Source: Escherichia phage JM10. Taken from it: 64,000 nt of DNA. Shown here one piece after another: positions 14,450 to 32,050 of this stretch. The stretch lies in sequence record PP400777. One strand, given 5' to 3'. The notes under the pieces were generated by a model that was not told the DNA's origin, did not search any database, and worked only from the letters and a program-made list of their open reading frames with translations. Position numbers and translations under genes: made by a program. Numbering within the stretch: the first letter of the stretch is position 1; every line of letters begins with the position of its first letter.

Positions 14450-14476
14450 AACGTTCTCCTCTAGTAAGTAAGGTTT

Positions 14477-14505
14477 ACTATAACACAACCTGAGGAGAAG
14501 TAAAC
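14477..14505 (-). promoter_or_regulatory. T4-type early promoter
   Basis: GTTTACttctcctcaggttgtgtTATAGT. Confidence 0.45.
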
Positions 14506-14516
14506 TGATAGATGCC

Positions 14517-14544
14517 AAAAAGCCCCAACCTTTCGGAAGGGGCT
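14517..14544 (-). terminator. rho-independent terminator hairpin (repeat copy A)
   Basis: minus-strand AGCCCCTTCCGAAAGGTTGGGGCT followed by a T-run; downstream of rI. Confidence 0.55.
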
Positions 14545-14550
14545 AGTAAA

Positions 14551-14853
14551 TTAGATAGATGTAGGCTCTAATTTTATTTTCATGAACTCAGCAAATTGTC
14601 TGGCAGTTTTTATGCCTTGTTCATGACATTCAAATGCATCATCACAGGGGCTATTTTTGTAATGCTTTGCCATATACTTATAGAATTTTTCAGAATTCTC
14701 GACATTTTGAATTTCAAACAAAGTATATACGTTTTTAATCCCTGATTCCATAAAGTTATCAAAATATGGGTCGATATATGCAGTACCAACGATAGGAGTT
14801 GTTGCTGCAAAAAACCACAGCATCGCCATGACAGCTATCGCTCTTAAGGCCAT
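14551..14853 (-). CDS. rI: lysis inhibition regulator RI (antiholin)
   Basis: signal-anchor N-terminus; FMESGI..PC..FEC motifs match my recall of T4 RI. Confidence 0.75.
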   Translation of the reverse strand: MALRAIAVMAMLWFFAATTPIVGTAYIDPYFDNFMESGIKNVYTLFEIQNVENSEKFYKYMAKHYKNSPCDDAFECHEQGIKTARQFAEFMKIKLEPTSI

Positions 14854-19769: not shown

Positions 19770-20072
19770 TTATTTACCTTTAATTACTTTAGCTGCTTCG
19801 ATAGCCGCTTGCTGAAGGTCATCCATAGACATACCGAATTTAGAAGCAAAGTTATCAATTTTCTTTTCGACAGCATTCAAAGGCTTTGCCTGTTTACCTT
19901 CATTAGCGCCAGGAAGAGCGAGAATACGCTCTTTGTCAATATAAAGGCTTACAAGTTTCTTACGGTCTTTATCGGACAAATCATGAAATGAATGGGCCTT
20001 TTTATTTATAGCGGCTTCTAATTTACCTGCACTCACTCGCGCTTCAGTAATAAATTCTTGATAGGTTTTCAT
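19770..20072 (-). CDS. ipII: internal protein (IpII-like) with capsid-targeting sequence
   Basis: N-terminal MKTYQEFITEA is the T4 capsid-targeting sequence (CTS); 100 aa. Confidence 0.6.
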   Translation of the reverse strand: MKTYQEFITEARVSAGKLEAAINKKAHSFHDLSDKDRKKLVSLYIDKERILALPGANEGKQAKPLNAVEKKIDNFASKFGMSMDDLQQAAIEAAKVIKGK

Positions 20073-20100
20073 GTGTTTCCTTGTTTGTTTTGATAGAGTA

Positions 20101-20130
20101 ATTATACCATATTAATACTTAAGCGTAAAC
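20101..20130 (-). promoter_or_regulatory. T4-type early promoter
   Basis: GTTTAC + 18 nt + TGgTATAAT. Confidence 0.5.
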
Positions 20131-20210
20131 CGTTTAAGCTTTACCGCCAGAAATAATTCCGAAGTTGTTAAAATCATATCCAATATCGTCAACATCTACT
20201 TTAGGACTTG

Positions 20211-20396
20211 CTACAACATAAGCAATTTCACTACGTTTTGCATAGGTGTTTTGATTTCTTTACCATCGCCACCTAAGAAAGAATACCCATTACGTTTTAA
20301 TGAGCCAAAGTCTTCCGCATCACCAATGAAAGCTTTAACTTTAAATTTAGGACCTTTGGCATCTGCTTCAACGATAAATTCTTGATACATTTTCAT
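20211..20396 (-). pseudogene. CTS-containing small internal-protein gene, apparently frameshifted
   Basis: MKMYQEFIVEA start; frame ends after 61 aa and continues in the +1 frame for about 28 more codons. Confidence 0.35.
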
Positions 20397-20563
20397 TTTT
20401 CCTTAGTAAATTGATTTACCAAAGTATTTGTACCAAGTCGGGCGTTGAGCAATTTTTTATCTAAGCGTGCTTGACTTATCGCAATGGACGCTTCGGACGG
20501 GTCATAATTTCCTCCAAGTAGTTGATGAATGTATAGTATCAAAACCCTTGGAGGAAGTAAACA

Positions 20564-20845
20564 CTATTTTTCTGAAGCGCCTGAAATATATTTTTCAAGA
20601 CGTTGTTTCATCAGCGAGCCGTTCTTAGCAATTTCTTCCGGTTTATCGCACATACGCAACAAGGCTTCAAGCTTAACGATATCACTGGTGCGCTCAAATT
20701 TGCGAGTATCTATCTTACTAGCAAGTTCAGAAATACGTGCTAATAGACTTTCAGCTTCAACCAAAGCTGCACCTAGCTTAGTTGCAAATGTGTCAGTAGC
20801 TTCGTTAAGAATAGATTCTGATAAAAATTCACTATATGTTTTCAT
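20564..20845 (-). CDS. internal protein (IpIII-position) with capsid-targeting sequence
   Basis: [13 protein letters not shown]; directly upstream of e as ipIII is in T4. Confidence 0.55.
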
Positions 20846-27027: not shown

Positions 27028-27621
27028 TTATTTCAAAGAGTTAATATATTCTTGTACATCAGCAGAAGTGGTTTCTACACCAGCTGGAGTGCCATTGAAC
27101 GTTTCAACACGAGTCAGAGTGTCTTCGATATCAACCTTAGTCAGTGCAGCGATTTCAATTACATCATCAGCCGTAGAGATACCAAGGGCATTGGCTGCTC
27201 GAGTTTCACGAATGTATTCGAGTTTGATTGCCAGGTTCTGACGAGCATCGTCAAGTTCAACCACCTTACGAGCAATTTCAATTCGCATAGCGGCATACCC
27301 ATCAGCTTTTGTATTAAGTTGTTCGGCAGTTCTACGATACAGAAGACCAAGCTTAGCATGCATGGTAACATCTTGTCCTTCAGCCAGGAGCTTACGAATT
27401 TCACGTTCCTTAGAAGCGGCTTGCTTGTTCTTTTCATTAACAAGTTCGCGAATACGTTTTTCTTCATTAATAGATTTAACAGAAGCCGTTTTTAGTTCTT
27501 TGATTTGGGTAATCAACTTATCTGCAGCTGCGTTATACTGTTCTTCGACAGTCAGATTTTTAGCCATAGCAGTACCAAGTTTAGTGCGGATGAATTCGAC
27601 AAGTTTCTTCAGTGTGTTCAT
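27028..27621 (-). CDS. coiled-coil protein
   Basis: about 197 aa from MNTLKK; long helical K/E/R-rich region. Confidence 0.4.
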
Positions 27622-27691
27622 ATTATTACCTTTCAATTGGTGGTTTATTATCCAACGAGAGCATTATACTCTGCTCTCAAGAGTTTGTAAA

Positions 27692-27919
27692 TTATTTTTT
27701 AATCAAATTGACATAAAACTTGGCGTCTTCGGGGTGCATGCCTTCGCAGTATTCTTCAACCATGAACTTCTTAACAGCTTCATAAGGACCACTCAGATTA
27801 AGCTCAGTTGTCCAGAACTTGGAATCTTGGACTGAATCGATACGAACTTCAGGGTGTCGGTTGCGAATAACTTCTTCGGTGTATTCATAATCAACGACAT
27901 CAATACTAACTTTAGCCAT
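27692..27919 (-). CDS. hypothetical small protein
   Basis: 75-aa ORF. Confidence 0.4.
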   Translation of the reverse strand: MAKVSIDVVDYEYTEEVIRNRHPEVRIDSVQDSKFWTTELNLSGPYEAVKKFMVEEYCEGMHPEDAKFYVNLIKK

Positions 27920-27947
27920 TTTGTGTTCCTCGTATTTTGATAGGACT

Positions 27948-27977
27948 ACTATAACATAAACTTACTTAGATGTAAAT
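27948..27977 (-). promoter_or_regulatory. early promoter variant in a PeSL-like cassette (ATTTAC -35)
   Basis: ATTTAC + 18 nt + TATAGT. Confidence 0.4.
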
Positions 27978-28130
27978 TATTTCAACGTCACCTTTAGCTG
28001 CTTTATAACCTTCGGCCCAAGATACAACAGAGTTTTTATCTGAGGATTCAAATTCAGGCATTGGACTTTCACCAATATTCACACAGTATGTTTCTTCATT
28101 TTCATCGAACCAAATAATTAAAGTAGTCAT
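27966..28130 (-). CDS. possible small protein (54 aa)
   Basis: ATG with AGGAG RBS; below the ORF-track cutoff. Confidence 0.25.
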   Translation of the reverse strand: MTTLIIWFDENEETYCVNIGESPMPEFESSDKNSVVSWAEGYKAAKGDVEIIYI

Positions 28131-28198
28131 TTTGTTTACTCCTCTGTAGTTGATAAGTCTATAGTATCACCGTCCTTGGTGCTTGTACATCATTATTT

Positions 28199-28504
28199 TT
28201 AATTTTTCCAACTTAACAACTTGTAGTGTCCTTCATTCATACGTGGTTTATCCCAAGAAATACTAATATATGATTCACCGTCAATAGAAGTCGCCGGGTT
28301 TTTCTCTACCGTAAGACCTTCACTTTCCAGCCATTCGATAGTATTTGCGCATAAATCAGAAGAACACCTCATCGGGAACCGGCAAGATTTTTCACCTTTA
28401 GCTGCAGTGTTATACATCTTTTCTAAAATACGCTTTTGCACGTTTTTAAAAATAGTTTCAGCAGATTCTTCAGATTTTTTATTCAGTTCAGTGTAAAGAC
28501 TCAT
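28199..28504 (-). CDS. hypothetical protein
   Basis: 101-aa ORF downstream of an early promoter. Confidence 0.4.
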   Translation of the reverse strand: MSLYTELNKKSEESAETIFKNVQKRILEKMYNTAAKGEKSCRFPMRCSSDLCANTIEWLESEGLTVEKNPATSIDGESYISISWDKPRMNEGHYKLLSWKN

Positions 28505-28532
28505 AATATTTTCCTCTGTGGTTGATAAGTCT

Positions 28533-28561
28533 ATAATATCATGTCCTTAGAAGAAGTAAAC
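28533..28561 (-). promoter_or_regulatory. T4-type early promoter
   Basis: GTTTACttcttctaaggacatgaTATTAT. Confidence 0.5.
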
Positions 28562-28595
28562 AACTTTATGAAATATTTTTATGCCCTAGATACCA

Positions 28596-28621
28596 AAAAG
28601 CCCCAACCATAAGGAAGGGGC
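28596..28621 (-). terminator. rho-independent terminator hairpin (repeat copy B, variant loop)
   Basis: GCCCCTTCCTTATGGTTGGGGC + T-run on minus strand. Confidence 0.5.
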
Positions 28622-28627
28622 ATTCTA

Positions 28628-29092
28628 TTATTTAATTTGTTTAGCAGACCAGATACGGTCTTTAATAAGTTTTTGGATATCTTCAACATACTCAAGGCTA
28701 TGAGCGTGAGGATTATCTTTGAAGCTATGTGCTCGTGCCAGTTTCTGGCCTTCTGTTTTGATTACTAAAAGCTCTTTAAGAATTGCTTCATACTTAGAAA
28801 TAATTCCTTTGGCGATATTTTTTTCTTGAGCTGCTTTAGGGTCTGCTTTTGGCGCAGGTGCTTTACCTGTAGCTTTCTGGAACAATTCACCTGATGCAGC
28901 TAGGCTTTTAAAAACTCGGCTAACAGTATTAGCATTAGTAAAACCTTCGGCTTTAAAATCTCTAATAAAACGGAAACGTTCTTCATCAGAGGCGTCTTTG
29001 TAAGAATATTTACCTGCTTGAATTGCTGCAATCGCAGCGGCTTTTACATCTGAACTAGATTGTTCAGTCAAAAATTCAGCGTATGATTTCAT
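28628..29092 (-). CDS. CTS-tagged candidate internal protein
   Basis: MKSYAEFLTE resembles the T4 capsid-targeting sequence; 154 aa. Confidence 0.5.
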   Translation of the reverse strand: MKSYAEFLTEQSSSDVKAAAIAAIQAGKYSYKDASDEERFRFIRDFKAEGFTNANTVSRVFKSLAASGELFQKATGKAPAPKADPKAAQEKNIAKGIISKYEAILKELLVIKTEGQKLARAHSFKDNPHAHSLEYVEDIQKLIKDRIWSAKQIK

Positions 29093-29137
29093 GTTGCTTT
29101 TCCTAAGTTAATTAACTTATCTATTTATTATTATGCC

Positions 29138-29164
29138 AAAAAGCCCCAACCTTTCGGAAGGGGC
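29138..29164 (-). terminator. rho-independent terminator hairpin (repeat copy C) ending the tRNA unit
   Basis: AGCCCCTTCCGAAAGGTTGGGGCT + TTTTT on minus strand. Confidence 0.55.
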
Positions 29165-29207
29165 TATATACCTTGTCGGGGTTCCACCTGCTAAGGCAAG
29201 TGTTTGT

Positions 29208-29299
29208 ACGAAACGCCGGGATTCGAACCCGGTTATTAAGCAGTTGACGCTACTCAATATTTTTAAAAGGCCATATCTCGACCATATCCGAACGTTCCG
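29208..29299 (-). ncRNA. tRNA-like RNA (92 nt) with canonical T-arm and acceptor stem but non-canonical core
   Basis: acceptor CGGAACG/CGTTTCG (one G-U); T-arm CCGGG-TTCGAAT-CCCGG; D and anticodon arms not resolvable by eye. Confidence 0.35.
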
Positions 29300-29472
29300 T
29301 CAAAAACGCTACTCGGCTTACGGCAAAGATATTTCCTCGAATCGATAATTCGGTGCGCCGTTTCTGCTGTGATGTAAGGGGATATTAACAAATCATAAAG
29401 ATTTATTAAGACCAGTCCTTACTCAGGGAACATCAGTCCGACGACTTACCGGTAGCGACCCGGCTTCTTATT

Positions 29473-29549
29473 TGGTCGAGGCAGAAGGATTCTAACCTTC
29501 AACCTACGGATTAGAAATCCGTTGCTCTATACAATTGAGCTATGCCTCG
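29473..29549 (-). tRNA. tRNA-Arg (anticodon UCU), CCA encoded
   Basis: hand-folded cloverleaf: acceptor CGAGGCA/TGCCTCG, D-stem GCTC/GAGC, anticodon stem ACGGA/TCCGT, loop TTTCTAA, T-arm GAAGG-TTAGAAT-CCTTC. Confidence 0.75.
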
Positions 29550-29555
29550 AATATA

Positions 29556-29629
29556 TGACCCAGACCAGATTCGAACTGGTAACCTTTCCCTTATGAGGGG
29601 ACTGCTGCTAACCATTGAGCTACAGGGCC
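29556..29629 (-). tRNA. tRNA with CAU anticodon (Met or Ile2-type)
   Basis: hand-folded: acceptor GGCCCTG/CTGGGTC (one mismatch), anticodon loop CTCATAA, T-arm ACCAG-TTCGAAT-CTGGT; 6 nt from tRNA-Arg. Confidence 0.65.
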
Positions 29630-29750
29630 TAAATAACTTTCTATTATGAAAGGCACTTTAGAGTACCTTTGGTAATAGAGGGTATGAATTAATAATAACA
29701 CATAATTCTTAAAGCAAATCAATCATTTTAACAGTTGGCAAAACGATTTC

Positions 29751-30035
29751 TCACCATATTTTGTATGTGTTCTGAATGCAATCAAGTCCTAAAGGATTCT
29801 TGAAAATATCATATTCAAGAGGGCCTTTTTCTGTTTCAATAAAGAAATCAAAGTTCACTGTATTAAATTTACGGTCTTCCCATAGTAATTTGACCTGTGA
29901 AGACGAACGGTCGATATAAACCTTTTCAACCTCAAAGTTAGTCAGAATACCGTAGTCATTAACTAGTGCTTTAGCTGCACGTTGATCGCTTTCGTATCCA
30001 TTCTCAACGGATTTTACCTTAGCGTAAAGAATCAT
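29751..30035 (-). CDS. hypothetical protein
   Basis: 94-aa ORF. Confidence 0.4.
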   Translation of the reverse strand: MILYAKVKSVENGYESDQRAAKALVNDYGILTNFEVEKVYIDRSSSQVKLLWEDRKFNTVNFDFFIETEKGPLEYDIFKNPLGLDCIQNTYKIW

Positions 30036-30394
30036 GAATGTTCCACCATTTCAAAGGTATGAGCATCAACAATATGATACCAGTCAAAATTTTCTTCTGC
30101 GTTTTTATAAATTTCGCGAAGAGCCTCAACAGTTTTTCCTGTAGCAACAAGGTCGTCAATACCGCCAAGAGGATAACAGTCATAACCAGCAAACAGAAGG
30201 AAATTAATAGTTTCTGTAGGTTCTGGATGCAGAACACCGTTATCGTCTACCACTTCAAAGAAAGTGTAAGAAGGAGTACAAGTTTTAATCCAAGCCCATG
30301 CTTGAGCCGCTGAATCAAATGGTCTGCGTATCAAACGACAATCAGGGTCTTTAGAAGGATTTGCTTCAAAATCCGCATATACGTGATATTTCAT
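30032..30394 (-). CDS. hypothetical protein
   Basis: about 120 aa from MKYHVY. Confidence 0.4.
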   Translation of the reverse strand: MKYHVYADFEANPSKDPDCRLIRRPFDSAAQAWAWIKTCTPSYTFFEVVDDNGVLHPEPTETINFLLFAGYDCYPLGGIDDLVATGKTVEALREIYKNAEENFDWYHIVDAHTFEMVEHS

Positions 30395-30395
30395 T

Positions 30396-30602
30396 TTACT
30401 CACCTTTTGCAATTTTATCCATAACGATAGCGATTAAGCCGATTAGAAATGCTACTACCAACGAGATAGAGTTTTCAGTTGTTGTCAGTAGTCCACAAAT
30501 GAATCCTACAAACATCGAAAAACTAAAAGCCATTGAAGCAATTACTACAGCAACATTACGAATCAGTTCAGCGCGTTTCATTTTATTTCTCCATTTACTC
30601 AT
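30396..30602 (-). CDS. small membrane protein
   Basis: 68 aa; two hydrophobic helices. Confidence 0.35.
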   Translation of the reverse strand: MSKWRNKMKRAELIRNVAVVIASMAFSFSMFVGFICGLLTTTENSISLVVAFLIGLIAIVMDKIAKGE

Positions 30603-30650
30603 TTGTTTTGATAGGACTACTATAACATAGCCCTATAGGCTTGTATACCT

Positions 30651-30914
30651 TTATTTCAAATATATTGCGTATTTTTTATAGCCACCAGGCTCGTGTCGAA
30701 GACCTTTATCATTCGCAAAACGTTGAATGTTATTGAACTGATTTTCATCAAGTTCGGATGTGTCAAATATGAAAAAGTTTCGTTTGTTACCAAGCGTGAT
30801 ATGCGGAGTTAAGTCAATGTTATACAAATTAAGAATATCAGCAATAACCTGATTGACCGCTTTGTTAATTTTCACACCAGACGATTCTGAGATGAATTCG
30901 TTGAAAGTTTTCAT
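30651..30914 (-). CDS. CTS-tagged candidate internal protein
   Basis: MKTFNEFISE CTS from the internal Met. Confidence 0.5.
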   Translation of the reverse strand: MKTFNEFISESSGVKINKAVNQVIADILNLYNIDLTPHITLGNKRNFFIFDTSELDENQFNNIQRFANDKGLRHEPGGYKKYAIYLK

Positions 30915-30946
30915 TTTAGGTTCCATTTGGTTGTTTTGATAGGACT

Positions 30947-30976
30947 ACTATAACATAGTCCTACCATGATGTAAAC
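30947..30976 (-). promoter_or_regulatory. T4-type early promoter in a PeSL-like cassette
   Basis: GTTTAC + 18 nt + TGtTATAGT; TAGGACTA..TAGTCCTA palindrome. Confidence 0.5.
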
Positions 30977-31287
30977 TATTTTATGCCTTTAGATGAAATA
31001 GTATTCTGGCGTTTGACCCCAGTTTGTGAAAAATCATGGTTATCAATTTGGTCAACTCGCATAACACCAAATGCGGATTTAATTTTGGCTTTTGAACCTT
31101 TTTTGATACTAATTATCATATAAGTATCATTTTTCTTATATTCGAAATTTGTTACTTCAACGCCTTGATTAGAAATTGACTTAATAATAGCATTAGCGTA
31201 TTCATCATCTAACGGACCGGTGGTGTTAATAATAAAATTTTTATCGGCTTTAGTAGCTTCAGCGATAAACTCTTGATAGGTTTTCAT
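30976..31287 (-). CDS. CTS-tagged internal protein at the ipI locus
   Basis: MKTYQEFIAEA CTS; 103 aa; immediately downstream of 57B as ipI is in T4. Confidence 0.55.
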   Translation of the reverse strand: MKTYQEFIAEATKADKNFIINTTGPLDDEYANAIIKSISNQGVEVTNFEYKKNDTYMIISIKKGSKAKIKSAFGVMRVDQIDNHDFSQTGVKRQNTISSKGIK

Positions 31288-31364
31288 TTTATTTCCTTGA
31301 GGTTGTTTATTTGATAGGATGATAGTAACACACCATCATCCTTATGTAAACTGTTTTGTGAAAA

Positions 31365-32050
<686 letters not shown>

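Follow-up and report, generated by a model that had tools for sequence, protein, structure and literature searches.

Gene content of the locus

The window discussed here is a stretch of 64,000 nt from Escherichia phage JM10 (PP400777), read as one strand, and all coordinates given below are window positions. It is a section of the genome of an RB69-like T-even phage of the genus Mosigvirus, and the 4-kb stretch around the gene of interest shows 95-97% identity to phages JM17, pEB20, mogra and SA79RD. This gene, taken from the ORF list, occupies positions 28628..29092 of the minus strand, with an ATG start and a TAA stop at 28628-28630, and encodes a 154-aa candidate internal protein of the PHROG 2280 family, the N-terminus of which reads MKSYAEFLTEQSSSD. 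The original prediction had described a 154-aa reading frame starting with MKSYAEFLTE and adjoining the tRNA cluster, and the gene indeed exists as claimed, with tRNA-Arg and tRNA-Met upstream and homologues of rnaD and rnaC in between.

Along the minus strand, the gene order begins with 57A, 57B/Acb1, an Ip7-type internal protein gene (30976-31287, minus strand), an Ip9-type internal protein gene (30651-30914, minus strand), trna.4, trna.3 and trna.2. It continues with tRNA-Met(CAT) (29556-29629, minus strand, identified by ARAGORN), tRNA-Arg (29473-29549, minus strand), the rnaD/rnaC homologues, a hairpin, the 154-aa ORF and a second hairpin, and ends with an early promoter followed by small genes towards e.6. 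The rnaD and rnaC homologues (T4 stable RNAs, species 2 and species 1 RNA) were located by alignment to T4 and its annotation. They align with T4 L013:8380-8676, with near-identity across rnaC, and occupy 29165..29472 on the minus strand up to the upstream hairpin, as the immediate upstream neighbours of the ORF. An Rfam scan of 27500-31500 returned two tRNAs and nothing else, rnaC and rnaD having no Rfam families.

The gene was also correctly placed outside the canonical ip loci, which correspond to window positions 30651-31287 (ipI locus) and 19770-20845 (ipII/III locus). It is situated between rnaC and the e.x genes, at a distance of about 1.6 kb from the closest ipI-locus gene and of about 7.8 kb from the ipII/III locus, and thus at neither of the known ip sites (57B-trna.4 or e-denV). 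Location at an ip locus is a habit of the internal-protein family and no part of its mechanism.

Two side observations concern the neighbourhood. The product of 57B (31365-31820, minus strand) is clearly an anti-CBASS phosphodiesterase of the Acb1 type (Pfam PF23474, E 1e-58), so that between 57B and e.6 there are several genes with a known or candidate role in counter-defence, namely Acb1, the two Ip genes and the 154-aa ORF. The GenBank records of relatives are split over the tRNA at 29556-29629, which is given as Met in some and as Ile in others, and T4 has an annotated tRNA-Ile among the tRNAs that come just before tRNA-Arg. Modification to lysidine enables a CAT anticodon to read Ile; this tRNA may be an AUA-reading tRNA-Ile that is inconsistently annotated between records.

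The leader as a putative capsid-targeting sequence

Codons 1-10 of the ORF, MKSYAEFLTE (29063..29092, minus strand), form a putative capsid-targeting sequence (CTS), with a predicted cut by the gp21 prohead protease after Glu10 (L-T-E). In the CTS of T4 IPIII, positions 4 and 7 serve targeting, and positions 8 and 10 serve processing (Mullaney and Black, 1996, reviewed in PMC9026906); the CTS alone suffices to package foreign proteins in T4 (PMC9026906). The ORF leader has Y4, F7, L8 and E10 at these key positions, thus carrying both the two aromatic residues expected within a CTS of about ten residues and, as far as can be read from sequence, the L/I-x-E site (L8-T9-E10) expected at its end. 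Compared with MKTYQEFIAE of T4 IPII/IPIII, it agrees at M1, K2, Y4, E6, F7, (I/L)8 and E10.

The frequency of such leaders in the six-frame translation of the window was compared with that in residue shuffles. A loose CTS pattern, M-x1-3-[YF]-x-[ED]-[FYWL]-[ILVM]-x-[ED], occurs six times (0.13 expected), and a strict one, MK[STM][YF]x[EQ]F[IL]xE, also occurs six times (0.000 expected, with none in 200 shuffles). All six hits are N-termini of ORFs with a ribosome-binding site upstream, and the remaining five belong to PHROG 'internal head/virion protein' families and map to the two classical ip loci. Note also that the ORF list over-extends two of the internal-protein genes, giving one as MEPKMKTFNEF... 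from 30926 and another from 20860; the leader motif and the position of the Shine-Dalgarno sequence place the true starts at the ATGs at 30914 and 20845. A further CTS-bearing ORF of 61 aa, MKMYQEFIVE... (20211-20396, minus strand), has a match to the Ip7-type family phrog_2667 that is limited to the first 43-48 positions, and looks like a truncated or remodelled ip gene between the IPII-type gene and the gene of a 93-aa internal protein.

The leader pattern is also kept across relatives. L8 is invariant in an alignment of 12 sequences, Glu10 is invariant in the six close homologues, and the leaders of distant relatives likewise terminate in Glu. The pattern M-x-x-[YF]-x-[ED]-[FVIL]-L-x-E, followed by A, G or S, is found in the distant relatives P0011-P0017 and P0021 (32-44% identity), which come from Yersinia phage fHe-Yen9-01, Klebsiella phages and metagenomes, and the leaders of which include MKFNEFLNE/A, MLEYSEFLKE/L, MKFKEFLAE/A, MLNFNEFLAE/S and MITFNDILVE/G. 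Length and other positions vary between these leaders; what they keep is the aromatic residues, a Leu placed two residues ahead of the cut, and Glu plus a small residue. Directly after the predicted cut, the JM10 ORF has Gln, where Ala, Gly or Ser is found in its relatives and in T4 IPII/III. A second x-V/I-L-x-E site is present in several homologues from E. coli phages (MKSYAQFLNE/AVLNE/AS) and also in the internal protein encoded at 20564-20845 of the window, and in the homologue g140 of Yersinia phage fD1, AVLNEASSTEIQAVAK starts after Glu10 and ASSTEIQAVAK after Glu15, both being predicted gp21 sites. Since the key leader positions are kept while the rest diverges, the leader behaves as a functional signal and not as a relic. 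The six motif hits against an expectation of 0-0.13, together with the conservation of the leader pattern, indicate that the resemblance to a CTS noted in the original prediction is not coincidental.

Conservation and annotation of the family

The 154-aa protein matches PHROG 2280 (E 1e-53), a family of unknown function, and a tblastn search found a homologue in 511 phage records, including phages of Escherichia, Shigella, Yersinia, Salmonella, Citrobacter and Klebsiella. None of the 60 records listed among these 511 names the protein as an Ip, all 60 having it as hypothetical, under a neutral tag (gp36) or unannotated; the top listed record additionally bears RASTtk tool notes. Neither Pfam nor NCBIfam has a family for the protein. 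Comparison by phmmer with 1.84 billion representatives returned relatives from T4-like phages only and no named family, and in two word-indexed protein searches the matches were similarly confined to T4-like phages, again with no named family. We found no mention of RB32ORF133c in the literature, and the fPS-2 paper contains no proteome. The "hypothetical" label carried by the PHROG 2280 family is probably owed to the absence of the gene from T2, T4 and T6.

The copies in E. coli phages are under purifying selection, with dN/dS of 0.10-0.19 at dS values of up to 1.3, and in Klebsiella and Yersinia phages the gene is found in the same place downstream of the tRNA genes. As a separate observation, a homopolymer of seven T on the plus strand (A7 in the ORF, at about codons 90-92) lies at window positions 28818-28824, and it is exactly at this A7 that a frameshift cuts short the relatives P0007, P0008 and P0009 (the last being Shigella phage SfPhi01). 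AV111, bov10K1 and G28 are among the phage records in which the gene matches in two pieces or is annotated as two ORFs. Two explanations are available, sequencing error at the homopolymer or a real inactivation that has recurred.

Expression signals

A Shine-Dalgarno sequence, AGGA, is read 8 nt before the ATG (29101..29104, minus strand), and locus comparison reveals a late-promoter-like octamer, AATAAATA (T4 consensus TATAAATA), 36-37 nt upstream of the ATG (29122..29129, minus strand). In 9 of 14 loci compared, the full late-promoter octamer TATAAATA is found immediately past the upstream hairpin and 34-48 nt before the ATG, and ATAAATA is present in all 14. The loci bearing TATAAATA include those of Yersinia phage fD1 and of Klebsiella phage RCIP0032, the latter with otherwise unrelated flanks. 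The same octamer occurs 16 times in the 64-kb window, counting both strands. In the window and in near-identical relatives it reads AATAAATA, inside cATAATAATAAATAg, with A at the first position, and this variant of the putative promoter is the main weakness, at the level of sequence, for JM10 itself.

Terminators on both sides insulate the gene, and such an insulated late transcription unit within an early/middle region suits a virion component. Just past the downstream hairpin, an early (sigma-70-type) promoter, GTTTACT-N16-TATTAT (28533..28560, minus strand), serves the next gene (28199-28504). The canonical ip genes of the window and of T4 stand behind early promoters enclosing a stem-loop, not behind late promoters. 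In the window, the Ip9-type and Ip7-type genes have an early promoter with a stem-loop spacer upstream (30927-30975 and 31288-31362, minus strand), e.g. GTTTACAtaaGGATGATggtgtgttactATCATCCtatc; T4 ipI, ipII and ipIII share this layout, with PeSL-like elements at the classical ip loci.

Terminator hairpins and the empty site

The original prediction had the gene flanked by two copies of a repeated terminator hairpin, and pattern search, folding and repeat search all find a 32-nt repeat on either side. The upstream hairpin, AGCCCCTTCCGAAAGGTTGGGGCTTTTTGG (29133..29164, minus strand), ends the tRNA/rnaD/rnaC unit and forms the left boundary of a cassette, the right boundary of which is the downstream hairpin (28590..28621, minus strand), 6 nt past the stop codon. 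As a direct repeat the two are 88% identical at a spacing of 543 nt; each is G+C-rich, has a folding energy of -16 to -17 kcal/mol and precedes a U run. The hairpin pattern has three copies in the window, against none expected. A scan for consensus terminators missed these hairpins because of a 2x2 internal loop in the stem.

Between rnaC and e.8, T4, T6 and T2 have a single hairpin, in the arrangement CCGCAAGGCTT-AGCCCCGACCGAAAGGTTGGGGCTTTTT-GGTATCTAGGCC, and no homologue of the mature protein was found at these loci. In slur03 and fD1, the T4 left flank is followed by the first hairpin, GTATAAATA, the gene, the second hairpin and the T4 right flank GGTATCTAGGCC. The presence of a single hairpin with both outer flanks in T2, T4 and T6 identifies the hairpins as the cassette boundaries. 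With the T4 empty site as query, the site was empty (one-piece match) in 8 of the 31 sampled records covering it completely, and occupied (two pieces, about 555 bp further apart) in the other 23. The gene is therefore a presence/absence cassette of about 545-555 bp, non-essential and polymorphic among close relatives. Its absence from T2, T4 and T6 can be explained by loss through recombination between the hairpin copies, and recombination at a single copy could likewise insert it. The identical position in Klebsiella and Yersinia phages suggests that presence is probably ancestral and that the model phages lost the gene, which would explain why classical work on those phages never saw it.

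The third copy of the hairpin, an exact match to AGCCCCTTCCGAAAGGTTGGGGCTTTTTGG, is found at 14517-14543 (minus strand) in the tk region, where it follows an ORF at 14551-14853. It is directly followed by an early promoter, GTTTAC-N17-TATAGT (flanks 14460-14550), forming a terminator plus promoter unit of the PeSL kind, and is a possible recombination partner of the copies at 28.6 and 29.1 kb. A different rearrangement is seen in Logan contig ERR11570814_2163 (L015), where at positions 2394-2724 the N-terminal 60 residues of trna.3 are fused in frame to the last ~32 codons of the gene, followed by the hairpin; this contig has no ip gene between 57B and trna.4. Such a structure would mean that trna.2, all tRNAs, rnaD/rnaC and most of the gene had been deleted; being a single contig from one sample, it could also be an assembly chimera.

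The predicted mature protein

With the leader taken off, the predicted mature protein has 144 aa, about 15.9 kDa and a pI of 9.6, its charge being akin to that of the window's other internal proteins. It consists of a conserved three-helix N-terminal domain (residues 11-72; 28877..29062, minus strand), a Pro/Ala/Lys-rich linker, KATGKAPAPKAD... (residues 73-84; 28841..28876, minus strand), which has low confidence in the AlphaFold2 model, and a helical C-terminal domain (residues 85-154; 28631..28840, minus strand) with a long helix at 85-121 and further helices at 128-132 and 137-151. In relatives, the linker is replaced by other P/A/K-rich stretches of variable length. AlphaFold2 predicts the leader with low confidence and as disordered, and the three-helix domain modelled alone (residues 13-67) reaches a pLDDT of 94. 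An internal L-K-E (residues 105-107) does not vary within the close family, and has its counterpart as L-D-E or L-N-E at the same place in P0011 and P0021; it could be a second protease site, but in the model it is located within the confidently predicted long helix.

Our searches detected no homologue and no informative fold for the mature part, and a PDB sequence profile search likewise gave no named family. Homology of the mature part to IPII was considered, given a full-protein BLASTP alignment of 40% identity over residues 1-43 (E 4e-6) and weak PHROG matches that were reciprocal. Once the leader was removed, just 22 residues aligned (E 0.004), and profile-profile comparison gave a probability of 0.2% (E 0.27), so this homology was rejected, the similarity being that of the leader. 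The alignment with T4-type internal proteins that had been proposed as a check thus gave a common leader and an unrelated mature part, which is the rule for the group.

Detection in Yersinia phage fD1 virions

Yersinia phage fD1 (Tequatrovirus) encodes, at the same locus, the 157-aa homologue g140, which is 77% identical. LC-MS/MS of ultracentrifuge-purified fD1 virions detected g140 as particle-associated at the strict threshold, and the same table marks it as lacking a T4 counterpart (PMC8309999, Table S3). The particle-associated list comprises 113 of 277 gene products; from the section of the table around g140 it includes DenV, lysozyme e, NudE, e.5 and e.6, with e.7-like, e.8, trna.4 and others absent (PMC8309999). 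Because this list holds clearly non-virion proteins, the detection mainly demonstrates that g140 is expressed and co-purifies; it is what the internal-protein hypothesis predicts, but no proof of it, and thus of limited value.

Proposed function and alternative explanations

The best reading of these data is that the ORF is the sixth CTS-tagged internal protein of the window, and that it occupies a third locus. By analogy with T4, we consider it likely that it encodes a head-packaged internal protein that is targeted by its CTS, processed by gp21 and injected. Under this proposal, the 154-aa protein would be made late from its own small unit, consisting of terminator, late promoter, Shine-Dalgarno sequence, ORF and terminator. 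MKSYAEFLTE would act as the capsid-targeting sequence and direct binding to the prohead scaffolding core, after which the gp21 prohead protease would cut after Glu10 (L-T-E), and the basic mature protein would become embedded in the packaged DNA and be injected with it into the next host. There it would most likely act at once, ahead of any phage gene expression, and its most likely role would be to block a host defence, as T4 Ip1, Ip2 and Ip3 do against distinct GmrSD enzymes. The protein may also remain on the incoming DNA, with which the three-helix domain and the Lys/Pro/Ala-rich linker would be compatible. Since the mature part has neither a homologue nor an informative fold, the counter-defence role is proposed only by analogy. 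The larger size, the two domains and the occurrence in genera with different cytosine modifications make a different target or a DNA-associated role conceivable. A more specific proposal, that the protein founds a new injected class of two-domain, DNA-associated effectors (an HTH-like three-helix domain, a linker and a helical hairpin) directed against a first-response defence other than GmrSD, is speculative and carries perhaps one chance in a handful.

A rather unlikely alternative is that the leader is a relic of recombination, i.e., that the Shine-Dalgarno sequence and the first 10 codons were inherited and now precede a late, cytoplasmic protein that is not packaged. T4-type phages are documented to shuffle modules at conserved regulatory and 5' sequences (PMC2839356), and the relation of the mature part to other internal proteins (none), the regulation unlike that of the canonical ip genes and the unspecific fD1 virion list would all agree with such an origin. 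A relic would drift, yet the functional leader positions and the Glu plus small residue are kept in divergent relatives, and since a CTS packages foreign proteins in T4 (PMC9026906), a CTS protein made late would be expected to be packaged anyway. Slightly less probable again is a prohead core or scaffold accessory, targeted by its leader, fragmented by gp21 and expelled like gp22, gp67 and gp68, in which case there would be no injected effector. The late promoter would suit this role, as would the internal L-K-E at 105-107, invariant in the close family and seen as L-D-E/L-N-E in P0011 and P0021, but that motif lies inside a long, confidently predicted helix, peptides of the homologue are found in mature fD1 particles, and absence of the gene from T2, T4, T6 and about a quarter of the sampled sites means that it is not needed for assembly.

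It is hardly credible, finally, that the leader resembles a CTS by chance or that the ORF is no gene, for which nothing speaks beyond the absence of a functional annotation. Chance is contradicted by six motif occurrences against the 0.000-0.13 expected per window, and the absence of a gene by 511 homologous records, a dN/dS of 0.1-0.2 and a Shine-Dalgarno sequence, promoter and terminators in place; with the peptides detected for the fD1 homologue, conservation and proteomic data already refute this reading. At the level of sequence, the internal-protein reading put forward in the original prediction is thus supported, each of its testable expectations having been borne out.

Implications

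Injected proteins of this kind, the polymorphic leader-tagged internal proteins of T-even phages, are well known. What appears to be unrecorded so far is the candidacy of this family, the third locus at which it lies, the late promoter that it has of its own, and a cassette organisation for which T2, T4 and T6 show the exact empty site. Targets are known for Ip1-3 only, and the field counts two ip loci and about ten families (PMC12373910). Present in some 500 sequenced phages, the family provides a counter-defence candidate that is easy to test, T4 being a natural null, and the cassette site points to a third hotspot in which to seek further injected proteins. Its candidacy as an internal protein also puts right the annotation in hundreds of genomes that serve phage therapy work. 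If the proposal of a new effector class were true, T4 would offer a clean knock-in background for finding the target.

Comparison with known systems

Like T4 IPI-III and the polymorphic Ip4-Ip10, the ORF product has a CTS leader with an L/I-x-E site, is small, basic and non-essential, and is variably present; as in other T4-type internal proteins, its mature sequence is unrelated to the rest of the group. T4 Ip1, Ip2 and Ip3, which have the leader alone in common, are injected, and the GmrSD type IV restriction enzyme that each one inhibits is a different one; tests of Ip4-10 gave no reproducible hits, and the expectation of the authors is that proteins encoded at 'the two Ip loci' are directed against variants of the same system (PMC12373910). 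The sequence of the ORF product is not found in the supplements to that 2025 study, in which ip1-10 were tested, and the family does not seem to have been among those (PMC12373910). The predicted delivery route and timing of the 154-aa protein, injected together with modified DNA, would by analogy be those of the GmrSD inhibitors Ip1*, Ip2 and Ip3 (PMC12373910). Differently from Ip1-3, it has no sequence or fold similarity to IPII, and the phages that carry its family differ in their cytosine modifications (Tequatrovirus and Mosigvirus). In contrast to IPI-III and Ip4-10, the gene occupies a third locus, with rnaC on one side and the e.8/e.x genes on the other, and has its own late promoter instead of the early promoter with stem-loop of the canonical ip genes; unlike T4 IPI-III, it is absent from T2, T4 and T6. 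At 154 aa, with two domains and a linker, the protein is larger than the products of the window's other CTS ORFs (61-103 aa) and smaller than T4 IPIII (~193 aa).

The genetic arrangement invites a second comparison, with the PeSL cassettes (Arbiol, Comeau, Kutateladze, Adamia and Krisch, 2010; PMC2839356), for which PeSL-mediated shuffling has been described in RB49 and phi1 (PMC2839356). In both cases a single accessory ORF lies between repeated stem-loops, and related genomes, here T2, T4 and T6, have an exact empty site holding a single chimeric element. The PeSL arrangement places an early promoter and stem-loop on both sides, and at the JM10 locus an early promoter follows the downstream copy only. 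Unlike in PeSL cassettes, the repeat of the ORF cassette is the terminator of the tRNA/rnaC operon, and its internal promoter is of the late type, not an early sigma-70 promoter.
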